A stretch of 64,000 nucleotides of DNA from Massalongia carnosa (taxonomy: Eukaryota), in assembly GCA_965645245.1 (NCBI GenBank), contig OZ287083.1, positions 496,001-560,000 on the forward strand. The letters run 5' to 3'. The notes under the pieces were generated by a model. It was given only the letters and a program-made list of their open reading frames with translations. It searched no databases and had not been told where the DNA came from. The position numbers were made by a program, and so were the translations under genes. Below, piece after piece: positions 26,342 to 37,588 of the stretch. Numbering within the stretch: position 1 is the stretch's first letter; the number at the start of each line of letters is the position of its first letter.

Positions 26342-26590
26342 GGAAGGGAAGGGAAGGGAAGGGAAGGGAAGAGGTTGTTGTTTCTAGATACTTTATGGCC
26401 CAGATTGCGATAGGGTAGGGATACCTATTCGATTTCTTTTCATCATCACCATCACCACCACCTCATTTACCTACCTAGGTAAGTACATACATATCCAAGT
26501 ACAAATAAAGACCAAATTTGCGAACCCTACCTACCTACATCCCATCCCCCTCTCCCCTTCCTTCTTCCCCCGACACATGTACACATCTCA

Positions 26591-26622
<32 letters not shown>

Positions 26623-26644
26623 TATATATATATATATATATTAT
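26341..26644. repeat. SSR cluster ending in a compound (CA)n(GA)n(TA)n microsatellite
   Basis: (GGGAA)n, (CAT/CAC)n, (TACC)n, then CA, GA and TA runs directly before the MULE and cassette array. Confidence 0.9.
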
Positions 26645-29306
26645 GAGTACGGATACGTGGACACCCCTTTGGTTACCTGGACACCCCCTGAGGTTACCTG
26701 GACACCCCCCAGTGATACACGGACACCCCCTTCCTAGAATAGGTAAGAATCAAGGGTTCAGGCCCCTCACTTACCCACTTCGGGGTAAGCTCCCGGGCGC
26801 ATATCGGGGAAATTTTTTCCTTCACCTTTTGAAAGTGGTCGGGAGTTTCTGAAACGAAGTCGATTGGCACTGTCTTTGCAAATCAGACTCTGATTCTAGA
26901 AACTAAGCCTCATTTGGTCTAATTAATGATGATAACCTCCTCATCTCCGCTTGCTGTCGCTGTCCCCCCCCCCCCTGTCGCCGTCCCCGCCTCCGAGTCA
27001 TTTGTAGTCAGCCTATCTGCCAATCCCCTTGTTATAACCCCTCCTCTAGCCCTACCTCCCCGTCCCCGTCCCCATCCCGATCCCCGTCCCCGTCTGCCTC
27101 GTCCACGACCAGGTGCCGGGTCCGCTCGATGAACGGCTGATTGATCTGCATCCGGGTCCACCCGCTCGAAAAGGGAAGGATCACGATTAGTAGATGCCTC
27201 GAATGCTTGCTGTCTTCTATTCAAATTCTCCGCACCTGGAGGTCTACCCCTTGGTCTAGCAACTTCGGGTGCCTGAACCCGAAGATAAGGATTATCAATA
27301 GCCACACGGGCTGTCCTATCAAACCTCCAATGAGGATGAATATCTTCCAATAGCAACTTTCCCCCCCCATCCCCATACAATCGTTCCTGAATCTTATGAC
27401 TGCACGGAAGACCCATGGTTAAACTGAACGTTCCAGTACAGGCCGGAATAGCTGTTGGTTGACCAACCAAACGTTCGTATTGAGGCATTATCTTTCTCAA
27501 AGCATAGGAAGTGACGTATGGACTGATTTCCTGAAAGATAGGTTTGCGAATATCCATAGGTAGTCGCACCTTCGCTTCATCAAGACGAATCAGATGATTG
27601 TGAAGTTCATTGATCAATAGAAGATTGATTCCGTCCACCACCGTCTTAAGATCTCCAGATGATGACCCTAGCTGTCGCTTAAGTACTGCATGCCCACCTT
27701 CACCTCGAGAGGTAGTGGTGGTTTCGAAATGAGTAATCATACTGGTATAGCACTTGACAAAACGATGTCGGAAGGGTATGTAGATGTCGTTTAGATATTC
27801 CACACATTGATCCTGACCCTGATACTGAATCCTGAATCGCTCCCATGACTCCAAAAACTCTGGTTCTGACGAGGCATAAACGACCGTTTTCCAGTCAGCG
27901 AAGAAGGAGTCTCACGCCTCTTTGGTATCGAAGCTCTTCTTGCAATTGGTCAGGACGTTATTATTGATGTGCCATAAGCAAAGCAGATGATTGGTTGCGG
28001 GGAAAACATCCTCAATTCCAGCTATCAGACTCTTTTCCATGTCCGTGACTATGACGATCGGGTTAGGAAGCATCATCCCATCATACATACCTCGCAATTG
28101 CTGCAACATCCAGGTATAATCAGACGTGGCTTCCTTGGCCATGAAGCAAAATGCCACATAGAAGTTGGTATGTAGGGCGGTTTGACCACTGATGATCAAT
28201 AAGGGCATCTTATATCTGTTGGTTTTGTAAGTGGCGTCCATCACCAACACCTCGTAATTCGTCTTCAATAGTCGTTGAGAACAGCCCTTAATAAAGAATA
28301 AATGAGTTATTCTATCTATATCATCCTTTTGCATCTGATACGTCCAATCTCCTTGATCCAGCTCTCGGATTAATGCCTGAACCGGAGTCAATGGGCCGAG
28401 TGTCTCGCGACGAAGCTGTGCTTTGACGTTGTAGATATCCCGAGGTTTGAATAAGGGATTGATGATGTAGGGATTTTCTGGATCGTCAAAATTGATTCCC
28501 GTCGTCGGATCAGCAACACGAAGACTAGATAAAATCTTGAAAGGGGCTGTTTGCACGATCAGAGCTCGGGAAATCTCACTTTTAACCTCTTTCGTCATCG
28601 CCAATTTCCTCAACGCTAGATGAGCACCAGCGAGGGTAGAAGCATGATTATGAGTCGATTTGACCACCTCCAAAAACCAGATACCACTGTCGTTTTCTCG
28701 TGTGGCCACACAAGAGAAAGGGCATTCAATTCGTCGGCTACCCGTATGTCGCCGATCCTGACCTCTTGGTCCGTCGGTTTTTCTTCCTCGATCACATATC
28801 AGCCATGCCTTTCTTGTTACCTTAAGTTTCGACTTCTTGGTTCGACCCAAAACGACTGCGTATCCTTGACGACCAGCATGCTCATTGACTCGTAGAACCA
28901 GGTCTTCCAGACTTTCAAAACTTTGTCCATCCTCGGGGGGTGCAAGTCCGCCAGGGGGTAGAGGGCCAGGTGGTCGGGGTGGAGTAGCTGGTTCATCTTC
29001 GAGGGGTGCAAGTCCGTCAGGAGGTGGGGCAGGAGGTGGGGGGTCAGGAGGTGGTGCAGACATGATAAAGTGTCAAAATGTTGGTGATGAGGATGTTTAC
29101 TAAGTGCCAAAATGTTGGTGTTTACGGTTGAAAAAAAATTCCCGAGGTGCACCCTCGGGAGCTTACCCCGAAGTGGGTAAGTGAGGGGGCTGAACCCTTG
29201 ATTCTTACCTATTCTAGGAAGGGGGTGTCCGTGTATCACTGGGGGGTGTCCAGGTAACCTCAGGGGGTGTCCAGGTAGCCAAAGGGGTGTCCAAGTATCC
29301 GTACTC
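26645..29306 (-). mobile_element. Mutator-like DNA transposon (MULE), 2662 bp
   Basis: 151-bp TIRs (26645-26795, 29156-29306; start GAGTACGGATAC; 3 mismatches), 8-bp TSD TATATTAT (26637-26644 and 29307-29314), internal transposase. Confidence 0.95.
26919..29063 (-). pseudogene. MULE transposase with one internal stop
   Basis: The two ORFs are in one frame, separated only by TGA at 27912-27914 (TKEA*DSFFADW). FAR1/WRKY-like finger (ICDRG..ECPF..HNH), catalytic motifs VMDATYKTN, VTDME, LCLWHI, TTSRGEGGH, SWIM-like CTG..GLPCSH, AT-hook RPRGRP. Confidence 0.9.
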
Positions 29307-29531
29307 TATATTATATACACCCCGAACTTAGGATTGGCAATTACCGTTTACGATCAGGAAAGGGAGCAGGGCCGCTTTAGAGGGAGCATCGAGGGAGCAA
29401 CGGGGGAGCAAGAGGGAGCAAGGGGAGCACCGAGGGAGCACCGAGAGAGCAAGAGGGAGCACTATGGGGCAGTGCAAGGGCGCAGCAGGTGGGAGCCTGA
29501 AATGGCTCCATTGATATCGGCTTGAGCTGCC
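29307..29531 (+). repeat. Cassette left end, copy 1, with GGGAGCA array
   Basis: TATATTATATACACCCCGAACTTAGGATT...about 9 GAGCA units...TCGGCTTGAGCTGCC. Confidence 0.9.
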
Positions 29532-30054
29532 TTTACTGTTGATCACTTCACTGAGGCCCACCTGCTGTTACCGGCCAGGCTACGCCTGTGCTATGCTTTG
29601 CATGCTTACCTCTTCATGTTTCGGTACTGTAAGATCCGGACCCCTAGCACGGCGACGTCGGGTGCTTAGCGCCCTCCTTTCGTTGTCCGGGCTCTCGTAG
29701 ATACATTAAGGCAGGCCGCCCCTAGATTGCTCAGTAGCAATTAGTCTTCTACCATCTCCGCTGTCTGCTCACCGGTGCCGCGCCTTCGTATCGCCTGCTT
29801 CACGCTGTCACACCTCCAACCCTACAGGTACATAAATCGGATTAACTTAACTCCGCACAAAGCTTTCCTCTTCTACGCCTTCTATACTCGCTTTATCTAA
29901 CTAGATAAATTATTCTAGTCTATATGTACCCCGTCGCTCCTTGACCCAAGAACCCTCGATATTGCGCTTTTCCGCTTTTTAGTTTTCACAGCAGAGCGGA
30001 TTTTGCTAAAAGACGTATTTCTAAATTCCTATGCTGACGTAATACTCTAGAGCC

Positions 30055-32057
30055 ATGATACCTGTGGAGCCGATCAGTCTGTCAATTAGTGCGGTGGCCC
30101 TCGCGACTCTCTTCAGCTCTTGCTTGGAATGTTTCGACTACTTTCAGAGCGCCAAATCGTTCGCGAATGATCTTGACCTTCTGCTCGCGAAACTCGACTG
30201 CCAAAAAGAGCGACTGCTTACTTGGGGTGATCTGGTTGGTATCTCTAAATCTATTGAGGAAGGACGCCACCCAGATCTAGACTCTTCAAAAGGCGGACTT
30301 ATACACAGGTGCCTCCACTCCATCGAATCGCTGTTCTCGAGCACGGACAAGCTTCGAAAAGAGTATGGAGTGGAAAGTACAACCGCCCCTTTTTCGGCCG
30401 AAAACTCTCCAGATTACCTCAGCTCCAATAGAATGGATCGATTTCGAAAGTCTTACCTGCGGATTCGCTCATCCCCCACGAACCAGAGTAGAGGTAATAT
30501 TTTGTCAAAGACGAAATGGGCAATCCACGATAAAGCCAAGTTTGAGGCCCTCATCTATCACATCAAAGATCTTACCGTTGATATACATAACATCATACCA
30601 GTTTCAGCGCGATCTCAAGATAAAATGGTCCACAAGGACATCGCTTCCCTCGCCCTTCCAAGGTTACGCTTAGTCCAAAATGCTTGTGAAGGAACGTATC
30701 AAAACTGGTCAGATGTTGCCAGTGCCATCTTGATGGCCTCGGAGGCTGGGACAATCGACCGTCGAAGTGTTCGGGAGTGGCTTCAAGATACCAAGAGCGT
30801 AGAGCACGATGTCGCCGAGACTACGATAAGCACAGATGTCTCTATCGGATCTACTTTGGTCCACAAGGGTAAATTTTGTTTCAACAGAGTGACGCGATCA
30901 CCTTAACTCACATTCGTAAAGGGTTCGACCTCAGTGTCTCATCAAACACCAAATTCTACTTTGTATTTACCTCCGGCTGCTTTTCTAACGACTCGGAGAC
31001 GTATTGTCAACAAAAGGCATTCGGGCTCATGAGCTTGAAACAAAAAGGGGAAAGCTTCCTTCCAGGATTAAGTACATCACTTGCTAGAGAAGGAACTCTT
31101 GGACGTCGAATCACGAAGTCTATGAACGTGAAATTCGACTCGGATGATCTTGAAATGCTTCGCCAAGCAAACTACGATGTCAGTGATTTTCAAAAAGCTG
31201 CAATAGAGGCAAATCTGCCTTTAGGAAATGTATATGTATATTGTGCCCCATGTGCATGTGCTGTGCGAACCGCTCTCACAGTATGTGTTCAAGGTAGCTC
31301 GAAGTATCTTCCCTACAAGACAAGGGTGGACGACAGAATTTGCGCTAGTTGTTGTCCAGAGACGACCAAAATGGACCGGCTCATCTCTCTAGTTACCACT
31401 ATCAAAGAGATCGAAGCAGCACTTGTATCCGAAACAAGTGAATTTAATACGACCTGGGTAGGACACCTCGATCGTGTTTGGATTGAACAAAGAGTATACC
31501 GACTAGAAGAAGAAATCTATGCCCAGAATGATCCAAGATCTCGATTGGAAAGTGGAGCAGAGCTTCTGACAGAGTTTGCAAAACAAGAAAAAGCGACTGG
31601 CATTGTTTTCCTCGGAGAACTCGATTACTGTCAATGGATGTTACAAACGCAGCCTTTTCCATGGAAAGCGAGGGTTCCGAAGGAGACCGAGATCTATCAA
31701 CTTGAAAAGACGGCAAATCGACAGGGTTGGGATCGGAAATATCTCGGGACATTCACTCCGAAGAATTTCACCGCGACTGCAACCTACCTAAAGAGCGGCA
31801 CGTCAATGAAAACGCCTAAGTTAGAGGCAGCAAAAACTTTACCTTCGTTGCGTCCCACGCTGAGACATGCCCCGCCAAACTTGGAGCGCCAAGATTCTGA
31901 AGAACAGGAAGGGATAGATTCCAAGAAAAACCCAAGAGTGCAAGCTTCTACCAGCACACCTATCTCTAAAAATAGCACGGGAAGAGATGCTAAGTCCGAG
32001 CTCCAACCCATCTCAGAACCTTTTTTAGTTAAGACATTACTCCCGAAAATGACTTAG
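30055..32057 (+). CDS. HeLo (prion-inhibition)-domain protein with an unrecognised Cys-rich C-terminal domain
   Basis: EPISLSISAVALATLFSSCLECFDYF..DLDLLLAKLDCQKERLLTWGDLVG..KTKWAIHDKAKFEALI. A phase-1 intron at 30869-30921 joins the two ORFs in frame with no internal stops. Confidence 0.88.
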
Positions 32058-32239
32058 GCATATTGGCACATCCATTAAATCGAATGCAGTAGGCTATTGT
32101 CTTGGTTGTGGGTTGAAATTCACCCATTTTAGGCTCCGATTACTACGCCACTGCACTTCCCAATAGCGATCTTTTCGCGTTCTCGATACTCCATTGATAC
32201 TACCCCTTGCTTCCTTGCTACTTCCCCTAATACGGCCCT

Positions 32240-32624
32240 GCTCGCTTTAAAGGGAGTACAGAGGAAGCACTGAGGGAGCATAAGGGAGCATCGAGGGAGC
32301 ATGGGGGAGCATCAGGGGAGTAAAAGCACGAAGCGGGCCTTCGCGTGGGAGCAATGTTGCGGTGCTGAATATTTGAATCTTGAGGATACAATATATATAT
32401 ATTATATACACCCCGAACTTAGGATTCGAGATTACCGCTTTTGATCGGGAAAGGGAGCAAGGCCACTTTAGAGGGAGCACCGAGGGAGCAAGGGAGAGTA
32501 CCGAGGGAGCACCGAGGAAGCAGGAGGGAGCGCCGAGGGAGCAAGAGGGAGCACTATGAGGCGGTGTAGGGGCGCAGTAGATGGGAGCGTGAAATGGGTC
32601 CCCCAGCCTTCGGCTTGAGCTGCC
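32240..32624 (+). repeat. Right end / (TA)n / left end junction between the cassettes
   Basis: GGGAGCA array, 62-bp right terminus ending GAGGATAC (32389), short TA run, then left end copy 2 (32398-32624). Confidence 0.9.
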
Positions 32625-35600
32625 CCCGTCGTTTTCAATACCTTCAACCCCACTCCCACAGAATCTGTAACGGATTAACCCTTCGAGCGCGTTCTGCCCT
32701 GCCAAGGTCCATGTCAAGGATCTATGCATCAGTGATCATGACCTGAGCATGCCAAGCCATGCGCCTATTCGGGTTTAGCTTAGTAAGGCTGATAGGGCTG
32801 AGAAGCATCCTTCCTGGTCAACATAGATAGATTTCTTTATCAATCATACAATGATTCGACCAACCACCAAGCAACAGCTTAAAACCTCAACACTGTGGCT
32901 TAGCTAACACTTAAGCTTTCTTAAGTCTCCGGTTGACCTGTACACCCCCGCGCAGGCCTGTCGCCAAGCCTGTAGCACTCAACCTATCTATGGGATAGCT
33001 CCTAACAGCTTCGTTCCAGTTTCCTACGTTCTACAGTGCCTCGTAAATTACTCGTGCCACCTAGTTAGGCCGCTTTCTCAATGGTATCGCTTAGCTTGTG
33101 CTCTTATTTAGCACAGTAGTCTGTTTCAACGAGCCTCTTATATCAACTTATCGGACAAGTCAGGCTAATGGACATCTTCACCAGGAAGCGGAAGCAAGCC
33201 GGTGATCAAGAGTCGCTCAATGAAGGGTCCGATTCGTTGAGTATGAAATTGAAGAAGATATCACGCACGTATGGGCTTGAAATGCTTTATCAACCGGAAG
33301 ATGAGTCGAGTGCGACTAACGAGTTAGTGCCGTGAATGCATATCTACGGTTCAGGCTAATTCAATACAGTATTGTCTTTGTCTACGGCTTGGGAGGAAGT
33401 ATACAGACTACTTGGCTTCATGAGAAGTCTAAGGTTCACTGGCCAAAAGCTTTTATTGCCCAAGATCTTTCGAACTTCCGCGTGTTCGCATTTGGTTATG
33501 ACGCCGATGTTGTCAACACATGGAATCCAGCCTCTAAGAGTCGTATAACAAATCATGCACAGGATTTATTGGATGCGCTGGCTGGTGAAAGATATCTCTC
33601 TGAAACAGTAAGTTATAATGAAAGGCAAAACGACAACAAGTGTCTAAAGAATAAAATCTTTGAACAGAATGAACGAATGATTATATTTATCGGACACAGT
33701 CTTGGCGGACTGGTCATTCAACAGACGTTGTTAGCGTCGAAGAATGCTGTCGAAAAGTATATGCAAATGATTCACAAACGTACCTATGCTATTGCTTTCC
33801 TCGGAACTCTATACCAGGGGGCGGATCTGGCTAGATGGGCAGCATTCGGATCACAGATCATGAGTGTTTTCAAGTGCTCCAACACTGCTGTGCTCGACGT
33901 TCTACGACCTGGATCCGAATTGTTGGCGCAAATCCAGGAGAATTTCCAGAAAATGCTACGACTACGTAAGAGAGACGGTAGACCGATTCATATTATATGT
34001 TTTTATGAGCAGCTACCGCTAATGGTTACTGGAGACGTGAGTCATAATAATTCTATTTTTTACACTACAACGCTGATCTTTATAGCTTGTAGTTACTGCG
34101 CAGTCGGCGGTCCTACTAGCCTATCCGAGTTACGGCATTCATGCAAACCACATGGTTAGTCGAGCAGGCTAATATTGGAAAATATACTAATTTGTTAGGA
34201 CATGACGAAGTTCGAAACGCGGGGTGACGATGGGTATCAAACCGTCCTAAAGAGCCTCTTGATTTGGCAAAAGGGAATGTCTCAGATAGAGTCAGGTTCC
34301 ACGTCTAGGTGCTGTACGTAAAGAGAGCTTTTTTTTGAAGATCAACTAAACCCACGATCTTAGCACTTTCCGCTAGAGACGAAAGGCTTCTTCAAAAGTT
34401 CTACACTTGTGACTATGAAAGTCATAAAATGCTGTTACCTTCCGCAGTTGCCGGGACATACGAATGGATCCAGCAACATCAAAAGTATATACAATGGAAA
34501 GCTGGGTTTGGACCACGCCTTTTATAGATGACCTCTGATCCTGGATGTGGAAAATCGGTCCTGGTCTCATATCTTATCGATCAGCTCTATAGCGAGCGCA
34601 AAGCTGGTAGCAATGTTTGCTACTTCTTCTTCAGCGACTGCGACGGAGAGCGGAATAATAGTTCGAGTATGACGCGTTGCGTACTTCACTAGATTTTTAC
34701 CGCACAACCTCACCTTTTCAGACACGCGGAAGCGGAATTACGCAACAAAGGGAGCAGAGCCACCGAGCAATTTGCTACCATATGGGGAATTTTCCTAGCC
34801 GCTATCAGAGATCCACAGTGCAGAGAATTATACTGTCTTATCGATGCACTAGACGAGTGCGAATCTCACAGTCGGCAGCAGCTCATTAAGGCTTTGTCAG
34901 AGCTTTTCTCCAGCGAACCATCTGGCTGCGAAACAGCGCGGATTCGAGTGTTTGTGACAACTCGTACTATTGAGTACCTCAAATCTGGACCTCGTGGCCC
35001 TCAGAGCGTGACTTTAAGCGGGGAAGAAGCAATGGAATCCATCAGTAACGACATCTCTTTAGTTGTAAGAGCTAGGGTCAACGCGTTGACGCAAAGAAGG
35101 CGACTTCCAGAAGACGTTCAAAATCGACTAATTCAGCAACTTCAGAAAGATGCCGACCACACCTTCTTATGGGTTACACTTGTGCTTGAAATGTTAGAGG
35201 ATTCAGCAAATGCCTCGGAAGAAGCTTTGAATATCATGATTCAAGATCTGCCAAACGATCTGGATGGCGTATACGAGAAACTTCTATCACAAGCCAGTGA
35301 TGTTGAGATGGCTCGAAGAATCCTTCATATTGTCGTGGCGTCCTTCAGACCCTTCACGCTGAAGGAGATTAACATAGCTCTAGCCATACACTCTGACGAT
35401 TTTGCGATTGCAGATATGAAGCCTAAATTGGATCCAAGCATTGATTACGCTATCAGGAAAATATGTGGACCTATCGTTCGAATCAGTGACTCTAAGGTGA
35501 CTCTCGTCCATTCAACAGCAAAGTCTTTTCTACTCCGAAGGCCTCTCTATCCCGCCTCGGCAGGCAACTCGTGGAAGCGCTCGCTGTCTTCTGTTGACTC

Positions 35601-37547
35601 ACATAGTCTACTCGTCGACATCTGCACAAAATTCCTCTCCTTGGAAGAGATCAAAAATGACAGCATTTTGGATACTATCTATCCGAGCGATGTCGAAAGT
35701 GATGATCGCGAAAGCCAGTGCGGGAGTACGATAAACGATACAATTCGAAAAGGAGACCCATACGATAAAGAACGATTAGTGCTTATTGTGGATATTTATA
35801 CAAAACGATATGAATTCTTAGACTATTCTGCAAAACACTGGACTGAGCATTATCGCCGAAGCGAAAGAAAATGGTCGCTGATTCCTCGTATTGCGAGTCT
35901 CTGTGACGCATTCCAACCGTCTAGTTACTACACATGGTTTTACGTCTACACGACTTCTTCACCAATGTGGGGATATGAATACATTGAACTCTCGACGCTT
36001 ATGGTTGCGTCTTACTTTGGGCTTGAAGACCTCGCCGCAGAAGTGATCGGTAGCGGTGTTCGGATAGACGAAATTGATAATTGTAATTGGACCGCTTTGA
36101 TGTACGCAGCATGGAGCGGCTCTGAAGGGATTACAAAGATGCTATTGAAGAACGGGGCTAGGGTGAACGCGATAGGAGATTCACACACTGCGACTTTTCG
36201 AGAGGAGCACACGGCACTGATGGCTGCAGCGGCGAATGGACATACGGAAATCGTTCATCTGCTAATAGACCATGGCGCTGAAACAAAAACCCACACGGAA
36301 TTTGCGCTTTCTACAGCAGCTGCGAAAGGTCATGAAAGTGTAGTTGCCACGCTCCTAGGCAATGGCTGCGATATTGAGGAGTGCAATTATTACGGACAAG
36401 TCCCATTGCATCACGCATGTCTTAGCGGAAGAGGCAATGTGTTCAAGCTCTTGATTAGCCATGGTGCAAACCATTTCACCAAAGACAGGAATGGTAGGAG
36501 TGCGCTGGACATGGCAGTAGAATCCGGCTCCGAGGAAATCGTCAAATGGTTGCTAGCAAAAGGCGCAGACATTAACGGCACTGATTGCTATGGTACGACA
36601 GCCTTTGATCTTGCGCACTTTTTCGGACACAATCGCGTCATGCGTCTTCTTCTCGATCACGGAGCAAAGAGTCCTTATCTGGGAGATATTGATGAGAATC
36701 AGATTCAACCAAAGCAAGACGAGTTTTCATATAATGAGCGCTTAAGAAGCCTCGATTTCAATTCATTTACTTTAATGGAAATCCTTTGCTGCTTCCCTTG
36801 GGTCCTTCGAAAGGCATTACTGAGACCTGATGGTAAAGGCAACTTCGAAGATAATTCAAATTGGGGCGATGGGTTGGAAGGCCAGGTTCAGGAAATAGCA
36901 AAAAGGGTTGTTGCAATGATTGACGCATAATGTTGAGGGACAGGAAAAATCTTGATCAAGATAATGGAATCGTCTCTTTTTGGGGTAATTTTGTGGATGG
37001 TACAGGTTTTGGATCTAAAGTAATAAATCTAAATTCGTACCCAATGTCGCAAATAGCCAAAGTGTAGCCAAAGTGTCCCCGAAGCCGCGCTTCTCCCCTC
37101 GCAGGATTTGCAGTCTGAAACATGAGGGAGACGGCTGGCTCATATTGGTAAAGAGAGAGATGATAAGGGTCTTACACAGGATTCGGAGACTTTCATACCG
37201 ACTATAGTTGACAGAATCCTCACAACAGAGGGTTAGTGGTGAGTTATATTAGGCATAGCGAAAGAGCTAGGGGGTGTTGGAGGGAGGTAGCGTCTGAGCA
37301 GTCCCTGAGCAGCAAGGGAGTATTAAAAGAGTATAGAGGAGTAGCGAAAAAGCAAAAGGGCGCAGCGAGGGAGAGCATGGGGGAGCAGCGAGGGAGCAGG
37401 GGAGAGCACGAGGGAGCCTAGGAGCGAGCAGTGAGGGAGCAGGGGGATGCAGCGGGGGAGCAGCGGGGGAGCATGAGGGAGCAAATTAACGAAATGGGCC
37501 TTAGCATGGGAGCAATGTGGCGGTGCTATACTTTTGAAACTCGAGGA

Positions 37548-37550
<3 letters not shown>
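32398..37550 (+). mobile_element. Putative mobile cassette 2 (left end - NLR gene - right end)
   Basis: Same terminal modules as cassette 1 with an unrelated interior, followed by (TA)19 at 37551-37588. Confidence 0.75.
33168..36930 (+). pseudogene. Fungal NLR: alpha/beta-hydrolase (SesB-like) - NACHT - ankyrin repeats, with two premature stops
   Basis: DIVFVYGLGG, FGYDAD, nucleophile GHSLGG, Walker A DPGCGKS, Walker B CLIDALDEC, TFLWVTLVL, ankyrin repeats (WTALMYAA, TALMAAAANGH, PLHHAC). In-frame TAG at 34525-34527 and 34690-34692. Several short introns in the 5' part. Confidence 0.9.

Positions 37551-37588
<38 letters not shown>
37300..37588 (+). repeat. Cassette right end, copy 2, plus (TA)19
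   Basis: Long GGGAGCA/GAGTA array. 37489-37550 aligns ungapped with 32328-32389 at 51/62 identity. Confidence 0.9.

Follow-up and report, generated by a model that had tools for sequence, protein, structure and literature searches.

A stretch of 64,000 nucleotides of the Massalongia carnosa genome (GenBank assembly GCA_965645245.1, contig OZ287083.1, positions 496,001 to 560,000 of the forward strand), hereafter the window, carries at 26637–37588 a tandem array of two cassettes, each composed of a 5' end (L), one gene and a 3' end (R) and set among runs of TA. The two L and R ends belong to a dispersed family in which the same ends enclose unrelated interiors, many of them with genes for HeLo, HET or NLR proteins. 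HeLo proteins, HET proteins and NACHT-ankyrin NLRs are components of cell death and self/non-self recognition in fungi. The family is very probably mobile, associated with TA runs and mobilised in trans, and with rather less confidence we place it among the non-autonomous class II (DNA) transposable elements of ascomycete fungi. The elements encode no enzyme and would have to be moved in trans.

The array in the window

In the 5' to 3' direction, the array reads (TA)10, a Mutator-like element (MULE), L1, a HeLo gene, R1, TA, L2, an NLR gene, R2 and (TA)19, whereby its TA runs are located at 26622–26641, 32391–32402 and 37551–37588. The left TA tract is part of a compound microsatellite, (CA)10(AG)7(AT)10 followed by TTAT (26589–26644), and the MULE stands directly behind it (26645–29306, minus strand). 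Both cassettes lie on the plus strand. L1 (29307–29531) starts with the tip ATTATAT-ACACCCCGAACTTAGGATT, which is followed by a minisatellite (29362–29462) and an inner block ending in GGCTTGAGCTGCC. The cargo of the first cassette is a HeLo-domain gene (30055–32057) with a predicted intron at 30869–30921, closed by R1 (32200–32389), which contains a minisatellite (32254–32317) and a terminus of the form ...GGGAGCAATGTTGCGGTGCT...CTTGAGGATAC, here called type 1. A short A/T spacer (32390–32397) makes the head-to-tail junction with L2 (32398–32624). The second cassette carries an NLR gene with several introns (33168–36930), its product combining a DUF676/sesB-like hydrolase, NACHT/NPHP3_N and ankyrin repeats. 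It is closed by R2 (37300–37550), with a minisatellite at 37357–37483 and a type-1 terminus ending in ...CTCGAGGATAC, and then by (TA)19 (37551–37588) as the right TA tract of the array. The layout, coordinates and counts given for the array by the first-pass annotation of the window were confirmed in every number checked; the minisatellites and the stops in the NLR frame (see below) had escaped it.

L1 and L2 have an identical 29-nt start and are 83% identical overall, 192 of the 232 aligned columns matching up to TCGGCTTGAGCTGCC. The last 62 nt of the two R ends (32328–32389 and 37489–37550) match ungapped at 51 positions, compared with a mean of 16 and a maximum of 27 in 2000 shuffles, and the two interiors have no mutual similarity at E ≤ 0.01. 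In this way alignment and shuffling reproduced what had been claimed of the shared start, the collinearity of L, the R termini and the unrelated interiors. Moreover, an L 19-mer and an R 20-mer occur exactly 2 times each in the window (0.01–0.02 expected), and the minisatellite with the unit GAGGGAGCAnn gives 12 matches in L1, R1, L2 and R2, all on the plus strand and none outside the ends (0.01 expected).

Dispersal of the family and anatomy of its ends

Twenty-three sequencing runs were listed, 21 of them containing some of the stretch, from 13 studies; no RNA run containing the stretch was among those listed. Logan contigs of four runs were aligned at 80% likeness: X3, with the same organism label as the run that best contains the stretch, X4 (organism B), X9 (organism C) and X5, an air metagenome. 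X4 was thin throughout, and in X9 the HeLo interior and the right flank were uncovered and the left flank almost so, gaps to which no meaning was attached. The depth over the L1 bin was 109 in X9, compared with 9.6 for the single-copy NLR interior, and 375 in X5, compared with about 8 for single-copy sequence. Contigs ended exactly before 29307 (5 in X9, 8 in X5) and exactly before 32391/2 (16 in X9, 8 in X5), and the loose flanks of the contigs broken at the L edge were A/T-rich, with a mutual agreement of only 47–55%. The excess of depth over L, the contig breaks and the disagreeing flanks therefore demonstrate dispersed copies with a sharp 5' boundary. In X3, the L and R bins exceeded single-copy depth only 1.6–3.6 times, and the source organism accordingly has a small family.

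An exact search of metagenome contigs with the 19-mer of the L tip returned at least 124 loci with at least 146 exact matches. Among the matches listed, 113 distinct copies had enough flank, and the counts out of 113 given below refer to these distinct L contexts. The contigs are up to 754 kb long and encode HET, NLR, Zn2Cys6 and other fungal-type proteins, for which reason they are regarded as ascomycete DNA. No nucleotide similarity to the cargo or the flanks of the window was found in them, and the loci thus represent other species that share only the ends. As a control, the L 19-mer was searched in 596 Gb of prokaryote genomes, where it occurred once, in a context with neither TA run nor minisatellite, as a chance match; in a viral contig collection it had no match. 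The ends are hence not confined to the window, as the first reading had supposed, and form a family with at least 124 metagenome loci and multiple copies in X9 and X5.

The consensus 5' end of L, which is about 225 nt long, is (TA)n-ATTATAT-ACACCCCGAACTTAGGATTgggAATTGCCGTTTTCGtTCGGGAAAGGGAGCAGGGCCGCTTTAGAGGGAGCA, followed by the minisatellite. ATTATAT directly precedes ACACCCC in 86 of the 113 listed L copies, and 62 of the 113 retain the inner block (GGCTTGAGCTGCC, at most 3 mismatches allowed), compared with 4 of 113 in shuffled sequence. With six R queries, BLAST returned 34 matches, including the two of the window and overlapping or orthologous loci. These have in common a subterminal block, ACGAAATGGGCCTTAGCGCGGGAGCAA, behind the minisatellite, and variable last 30–45 nt. 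The type-1 terminus, to which the window's R ends belong, reads ...GCGGTGC..ATATTTGAAACTCGAGGATAC, and the commoner type 2 reads ...AGTCAGC..GGTCACGTGTTGGCCTGGGTTCGGGGAAAC. R is followed at once by TA-rich sequence in 32 of the 34 matches, the exceptions being a partial 27-nt match and locus L042.

The minisatellite GAGGGAGCA is present in both L and R in the same, direct orientation. When the type-2 R tip is reversed (TTTCCCCGAACCCAGG), it matches the L tip ACACCCCGAACTTAGG in 11 of 16 positions, as an imperfect inverted copy, and in many copies this inverted tip (CCCCGAAC..AGG) stands at nearly the same distance from the TA border as the L tip does. The ends had originally been called asymmetric. 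This holds in so far as elements with L and R in the same direction (L>R>) have no long terminal inverted repeats (TIRs), but it has to be qualified by the common direct minisatellite, by the type-2 tip and by the existence of elements with two inverted L ends (L><L). Folded as single-stranded DNA, none of 7 ends did better than shuffled sequence (z-scores from −1.7 to +1.3), and a search of Rfam gave four weak matches, which scored far below the gathering thresholds and lay outside L and R proper.

When each L was paired with the R or inverted L that follows it, 39 pairs resulted, of which 28 complete elements were left after removing repeats by end sequence and about 21 after merging evident orthologues between assemblies. 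Most of the 28 are L>R>; seven are L><L, about five of these being distinct. Ten are short (159–644 bp), namely nine cargo-less L-R pairs and one inverted L pair of 484 bp (L021), and the remaining 18 measure 1.5–9.8 kb. The inner block of L is missing from the short L-R copies, in keeping with a deletion of the interior; recombination between the two direct minisatellites would leave just such copies of L, minisatellite and R. Across elements, the ends are about 80–85% alike while the cargo is unrelated, a sign of constraint on the ends.

Association with TA runs, stacking and cargo

A run of (TA)≥4 lies within 40 nt upstream in 93 of the 113 listed L copies, and the link to TA runs proposed from the window is thereby a trait of the family. 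Among 90 copies, the perfect TA run before ATTATAT is most often 9 nt (15 copies) or 10 nt (16 copies) long. Eleven of the 113 listed L copies follow an R end directly, and 8 are placed head-to-head with another L across a TA run. Counted from the R side, the next L (ACACCCC) is reached within 22 nt at 11 of the 23 distinct R ends, most often after 16 nt (9+7), as at 5 of these 11 junctions. Loci L060, L022 and L026 hold arrays of 3–5 units in a row with different interiors. Head-to-tail stacking at TA runs, first noted in the window, is thus present in other genomes too, and the window's array is therefore typical of the family. Tail-to-tail pairs were also seen, with two type-2 R ends facing each other across a short TA run (L037:3600–3700, L050:13900–14000 and L029:13540–13600), so that all three relative orientations of neighbouring elements occur.

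One cassette was found at two loci. A HET cassette at L006:6818–10019 (also in L053) is 99.4% identical over 3.2 kb to that at L060:10001–13213 (also in L061). The alignment extends only 10–22 nt beyond the start of L and the end of R, all of it TA run, and past this the flanks show no relation; the L006 copy is solitary, with unique sequence on either side, and the L060 copy occupies the middle of an array. Of all the sequence comparisons made, this one most strongly suggests that L...R moves as a unit. The contents of arrays vary as well: L002 and L056 (also L085) match at 98.4% over 6.4 kb, to a point about 70 nt inside an L, and then continue into different cassettes, which means that array content differs between close relatives at the same position. 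Within a 6.7-kb L><L element, one of five assemblies that are otherwise 98–99% identical has a 3.1-kb insertion (L072:14946–18024, compared with L024). Loci L026 and L022 were considered as a case of cassette presence and absence and were discarded, the difference being a replacement of 3.5 kb by 0.3 kb with a left breakpoint that is not at a TA run.

Open reading frames (ORFs) were scanned in 1.29 Mb around the L copies, where 141 of 312 ORF clusters (at least 2 members or an ORF of at least 300 aa) were represented, and inside 12 cargo-bearing elements, which yielded 87 ORFs of at least 110 aa; elements below 1 kb, the window's two elements and three near-duplicates (the copies in L028, L065 and L022) were left out of the second scan. 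No enzyme that could move the cassettes was found among these 87 ORFs, in agreement with the earlier claim for the window. About 13 distinct cargo-bearing elements are known, and 6 of the 13, about half, have HeLo, HET or NLR cargo supported by Pfam. HeLo is represented by the first cassette of the window, NLR by the second, by L002, whose protein has a PigL_N (HeLo-like) N-terminus, and by fragments in L019, and HET by the cassette common to L006 and L060 and by L048. The L024 group carries a HET-related gene recognised by BLASTP only. Three further elements carry, respectively, an APH kinase with a carboxylesterase; a fructosamine kinase with a HAD hydrolase, DUF7881-HNH_2 and Tc1 remnants; and a Zn2Cys6 factor with a dienelactone hydrolase. 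The cargo of three elements has no Pfam match. HeLo, HET and NLR genes make up a few per cent of the genes of ascomycete genomes, and their part in the cargo is far above this base rate. The immune character of the cargo claimed at first pass is therefore retained as an enrichment within a diverse cargo that also includes kinases, hydrolases and a Zn2Cys6 factor. Identity between HET proteins from different cassettes is 31–46%. ORFs for HET, patatin, NB-ARC-TPR and Schlafen-like helicase proteins also occur next to L copies without a defined other end.

In all 6 of 6 L>R> cassettes with a single ORF, the gene runs in the same direction as the element, and in multi-gene cassettes the genes often run against it. 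The ATG follows L by 524 nt in the HeLo cassette and by 544 nt in the NLR cassette, consistent with the 520–545 bp first reported for the window. In other family members, the first ATG lies anywhere between 371 and 2392 nt behind L, and the similar spacing in the window is for this reason no trait of the family. A role of L as a fixed-distance promoter was rejected on the same grounds. The DUF7881-HNH_2 endonuclease ORF at L026:8408–9055 lies inside a multi-gene cassette, antisense to L>R; since it was seen in only one element, it is read as cargo rather than as the mobilising enzyme. About 1.5 kb from another L copy there is a DUF3723 ORF (L032:11568–12695, E = 4e-81), a family that a paper on lichen Starships reportedly counts among the typical auxiliary genes of these elements.

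Mobilisation and related systems

The closest known systems are SaTar (guayule, rice), MuTAnT (Medicago) and TAFT (maize), which like L/R are non-autonomous, flanked by (TA)n and assembled into uninterrupted mixed arrays; Micron of rice is another TA-flanked element. MuTAnT copies lie in (TA)n, have 9-nt duplications only outside perfect repeats and carry GGGG/CCCC tips (PMC4486113), and SaTar forms non-nested arrays of unrelated units together with autonomous MULEs (PMC5907723). More generally, the plant MULEs that target TA microsatellites are described as having 9–10-bp duplications visible only outside microsatellites and imperfect TIRs with G/C runs at the tips (PMC5907723, PMC4486113). 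TA-flanked, non-nested arrays of this kind were found for L/R as well. The three systems are from plants, measure 0.2–1.7 kb and are without genes, whereas L/R is fungal and most of its full elements carry one or more whole genes. In addition, the ends of L/R are largely asymmetric with direct subterminal minisatellites, and a matching MULE transposase was not found. At first pass the family had not been recognised as a described one. Indeed, no description of such a fungal family was found in the full-text literature, Repbase and Dfam lying outside that search; its architecture has the plant precedent outlined in PMC5907723 and PMC4486113.

A full element consists of L (about 225 nt), an interchangeable interior and an R whose variable 30–45-nt tip always stops before a TA run. 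The interior is usually one whole host-type gene, in about half of the cases HeLo, HET or NLR. The elements lie in, or create, TA runs and each inserted copy is bordered by TA, so that new copies land beside old ones without interruption and build up head-to-tail, head-to-head and tail-to-tail arrays. The agent may tentatively be named as Mutator-like: the leading candidate is a Mutator-type DDE transposase that would move the elements by cut and paste and prefer (TA)n, as for MuTAnT and SaTar. Another DDE transposase, or one of unknown kind, is a less likely agent. A DDE transposase acting in trans would agree with the short inverted tips and with both orientations at one TA run, and the subterminal repeats might serve as its binding sites. 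The 9–10-nt TA run and the 16-nt (9+7) spacing from R to L would fit a 9-bp duplication of a TATATATAT target.

Several observations weigh against a DNA transposon of this kind. No autonomous member was found among the 141 representative and 87 in-element ORFs, although one encoding a recombinase or transposase had been predicted at first pass. The empty (TA)n sites predicted alongside it were not found in the 1.29 Mb of loci either, where all upstream L flanks were searched against all loci and only the known pair of HET cassettes was returned. A target duplication is not provable, and in flanks that are not pure TA two 9-mers mismatch (e.g., L029 and L060:3416). The L>R> elements have only the 11/16 inverted tip in place of the long TIRs typical of MULEs, and their subterminal repeats are direct at both ends, which is unusual for DDE transposons. 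The arms of the L><L elements are only 74–86% alike over 36–166 nt and could be two separate insertions; they are too diverged for these elements to be accepted as proof of a TIR transposon. Furthermore, the TIRs of the window's MULE are unrelated to the L and R ends and that MULE is absent from the 124 L loci listed, all of which come from one accession series and may represent few species.

The spacing and the unproven duplication would also agree with circular cassettes, in which the R-(TA)n-L junction is the site and integration into TA runs is performed by a tyrosine recombinase (Crypton/Starship-captain type) or by homologous recombination of TA tracts. Head-to-tail stacking with a spacer that is short and constant (16 nt at 5 of the 11 junctions) is in line with this, the junction of a type-2 R with L (GTTCGGGG..(TA)n..CCCCGAAC) forms inverted arms around a TA spacer like the core site of a recombinase, and circular intermediates recombining into microsatellites are proposed by the SaTar authors (PMC5907723). 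We nonetheless regard circles as unlikely: a recombinase gene was not found in or near the scanned elements or in the window, both orientations occur at one TA run together with L><L pairs, neither a circle junction nor an empty site was seen, and nothing favours circles positively over transposition. The first-pass annotation had likened the array to integron cassettes, with a tyrosine recombinase or a microsatellite-targeting DDE transposase as candidate enzymes. The resemblance lies in units of one gene each, independent of a promoter, that are stacked at a single site and share a repeated junction element. It is a likeness of architecture only, an integrase, an attI site and a common promoter being absent from L/R, and nothing points specifically to such a mechanism.

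Even less probable is a non-autonomous Helitron2/Helentron-like rolling circle, with L as the conserved 5' end, R variable by end bypass and genes captured by read-through, although Helitrons are reportedly enriched in lichenised fungi. The asymmetric ends, the short inverted repeat that links the 5' tip to the 3' region, the variable 3' tips, the central tandem repeat, the whole-gene capture and the tandem arrays are all Helitron-like in this sense. Most Helitrons of fungi belong to the Helitron2 type and have asymmetric TIRs (PMC5148889), and Helitron2/FoHeli elements are like L/R in these TIRs, in gene capture, in tandem copies and in having non-autonomous members. However, L/R departs from them in its terminal sequences, in where its 3' repeat lies, in hairpins and in the insertion site. 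The ends of L/R read ATTATATACACCCC... and ...GAGGATAC or ...GGGGAAAC, with neither TC...CTRR, the absence of which had already been noted in the window, nor the FoHeli ends TCAG...ATTTT or TGCCT...CTCCTGT given in PMC5148889. Only 4 nt, instead of 20–50 nt, separate the 3' inverted repeat from the end, there is no 3' hairpin (0 of 7 ends folding better than shuffles), and no Rep or helicase ORF was present among the 141 representative and 87 in-element ORFs. TA runs stand on both sides, and the modal 9–10-nt run would stay unexplained.

It is most improbable that L and R are immobile promoter/terminator or insulator modules that belong to a gene family and were spread through local duplication and gene conversion: the uniform gene direction in the 6 single-gene L>R> cassettes and the few copies in the window's own organism (about 3.6 times the single-copy depth over the R1/L2 bin in X3) would suit such modules, but there are cargo-less copies of 159–644 bp, more than 100 copies with unrelated flanks and sharp ends, a 3.2-kb cassette at two unrelated loci whose match ends at L and R, genes of opposite orientation in multi-gene cassettes and a distance from L to ATG that is not constant.

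With the trans-mobilised DNA transposon as the preferred reading, other vehicles of host genes can be compared. Pack-MULEs and elements of fungal transduplication are, like L/R, non-autonomous DNA transposons carrying host sequence between their ends; transduplication mediated by transposable elements has reportedly been observed in a fungus. The cargo of Pack-MULEs is mostly gene fragments, whereas L/R carries entire genes, together with introns and the upstream regions that belong to them. Starships and ToxhAT of the Pezizomycotina move accessory genes as L/R does, NLRs and patatin-like genes being typical passengers (PMC13486527, PMC12506042). Both encode their own enzymes and are much larger than L/R elements. 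Starships are tens to hundreds of kb long and have their own tyrosine-recombinase captain and short direct repeats, whereas L/R elements are 0.2–10 kb, without enzyme and placed in TA runs; no tyrosine-recombinase ORF was found in the 12 cargo-bearing elements or in the window. The only transposase signal in the ORF scans was a Tc1-like DDE_3 remnant (L078, L026). A Tc1/mariner transposase was dismissed as the driver, the inverted repeats of these remnants being unrelated to L.

The NLR, HET and HeLo genes of fungi vary greatly between strains in presence, number and position. L/R would be a concrete vehicle for such movement: small, without enzyme, with defined ends and one complete gene, and landing beside earlier copies. 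The high interest of the family is due to this defined vehicle for cell-death and allorecognition genes, which suggests how fungi shuffle the genes of self/non-self recognition. Whether L/R is a dedicated and horizontally spreading vehicle for HET, HeLo and NLR cassettes among rock- and lichen-associated ascomycetes, exchanged between their genomes and perhaps between species and stacked at TA tracts by a so-far-unseen enzyme that would read the asymmetric L and R ends, is more doubtful, though possible. If so, a part of the fungal allorecognition repertoire would be a mobile, shareable pool. A 5.3-kb contig of X9 over the NLR interior has 220 differences from the window in about 4.6 kb, and this cassette of about 95% identity in a differently labelled organism is compatible with exchange between genomes but is no demonstration of it. 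Occupied and empty TA sites would make the origin of immune-gene clusters, and their possible transfer between genomes, directly testable. Modular arrays targeted to microsatellites have until now been described in plants, and the family would also widen their range to include fungi and cargo of whole genes.

The Mutator-like element and other features of the window

The MULE of the window (2.66 kb, 26645–29306) has 174-nt TIRs of 93% identity and encodes, on the minus strand, a protein with MULE transposase and FAR1 domains. It is flanked by an 8-bp duplication, TATATTAT, at 26637–26644 and 29307–29314, the left copy being the last 8 nt of the compound microsatellite segment 26589–26644. Its insertion site is thus the TA/ATTATAT leader of L1, and it is placed outside the L/R family: an unrelated MULE landed in the same TA tract as the array, in parallel to the plant MULEs that target TA. 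The TIRs contain about 3.8 copies of a 21-nt unit containing GGACACCCCC, and the heptamer ACACCCC is common to them and the L tip. As this heptamer is all that matches, and as the element is absent from the 124 L loci listed, the MULE was rejected as an unsupported driver of L/R. In run X3 it reaches about 60–70 times the single-copy depth. Its transposase is split into two ORFs by one in-frame stop at 27912–27914; in most other MULE copies of X3 the letter at 27912 differs from that of the window (10150 of a depth of 11007).

The product of the HeLo gene matches PF14479 with E = 3e-44, and its C-terminal 394 aa (30922–32054) have no Pfam match. The frame of the neighbouring NLR gene contains two in-frame TAG stops (34525–34527 and 34690–34692), because of which this copy is probably a pseudogene. 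The stops stand at positions where relatives would have Trp or Gln, as placed by LWxxGxPGxGKS, which we take to be the NLR motif there, and conserved motifs nearby have changes of the C>T or G>A type. Judged from these letters, the decay looks like that of repeat-induced point mutation. The frame of the HeLo gene next to it is open. No recombinase gene was found in the window, where the neighbours of the array are the MULE and housekeeping-type genes and the remainder holds ordinary genes (a kinase, Nup98-96 and DUF7514). Outside the window, at L091:301 and L123:301, the same 19-mer tip stands behind A/T-rich sequence and is followed by a quite different interior without the minisatellite, and a second family may share the terminal module of L.

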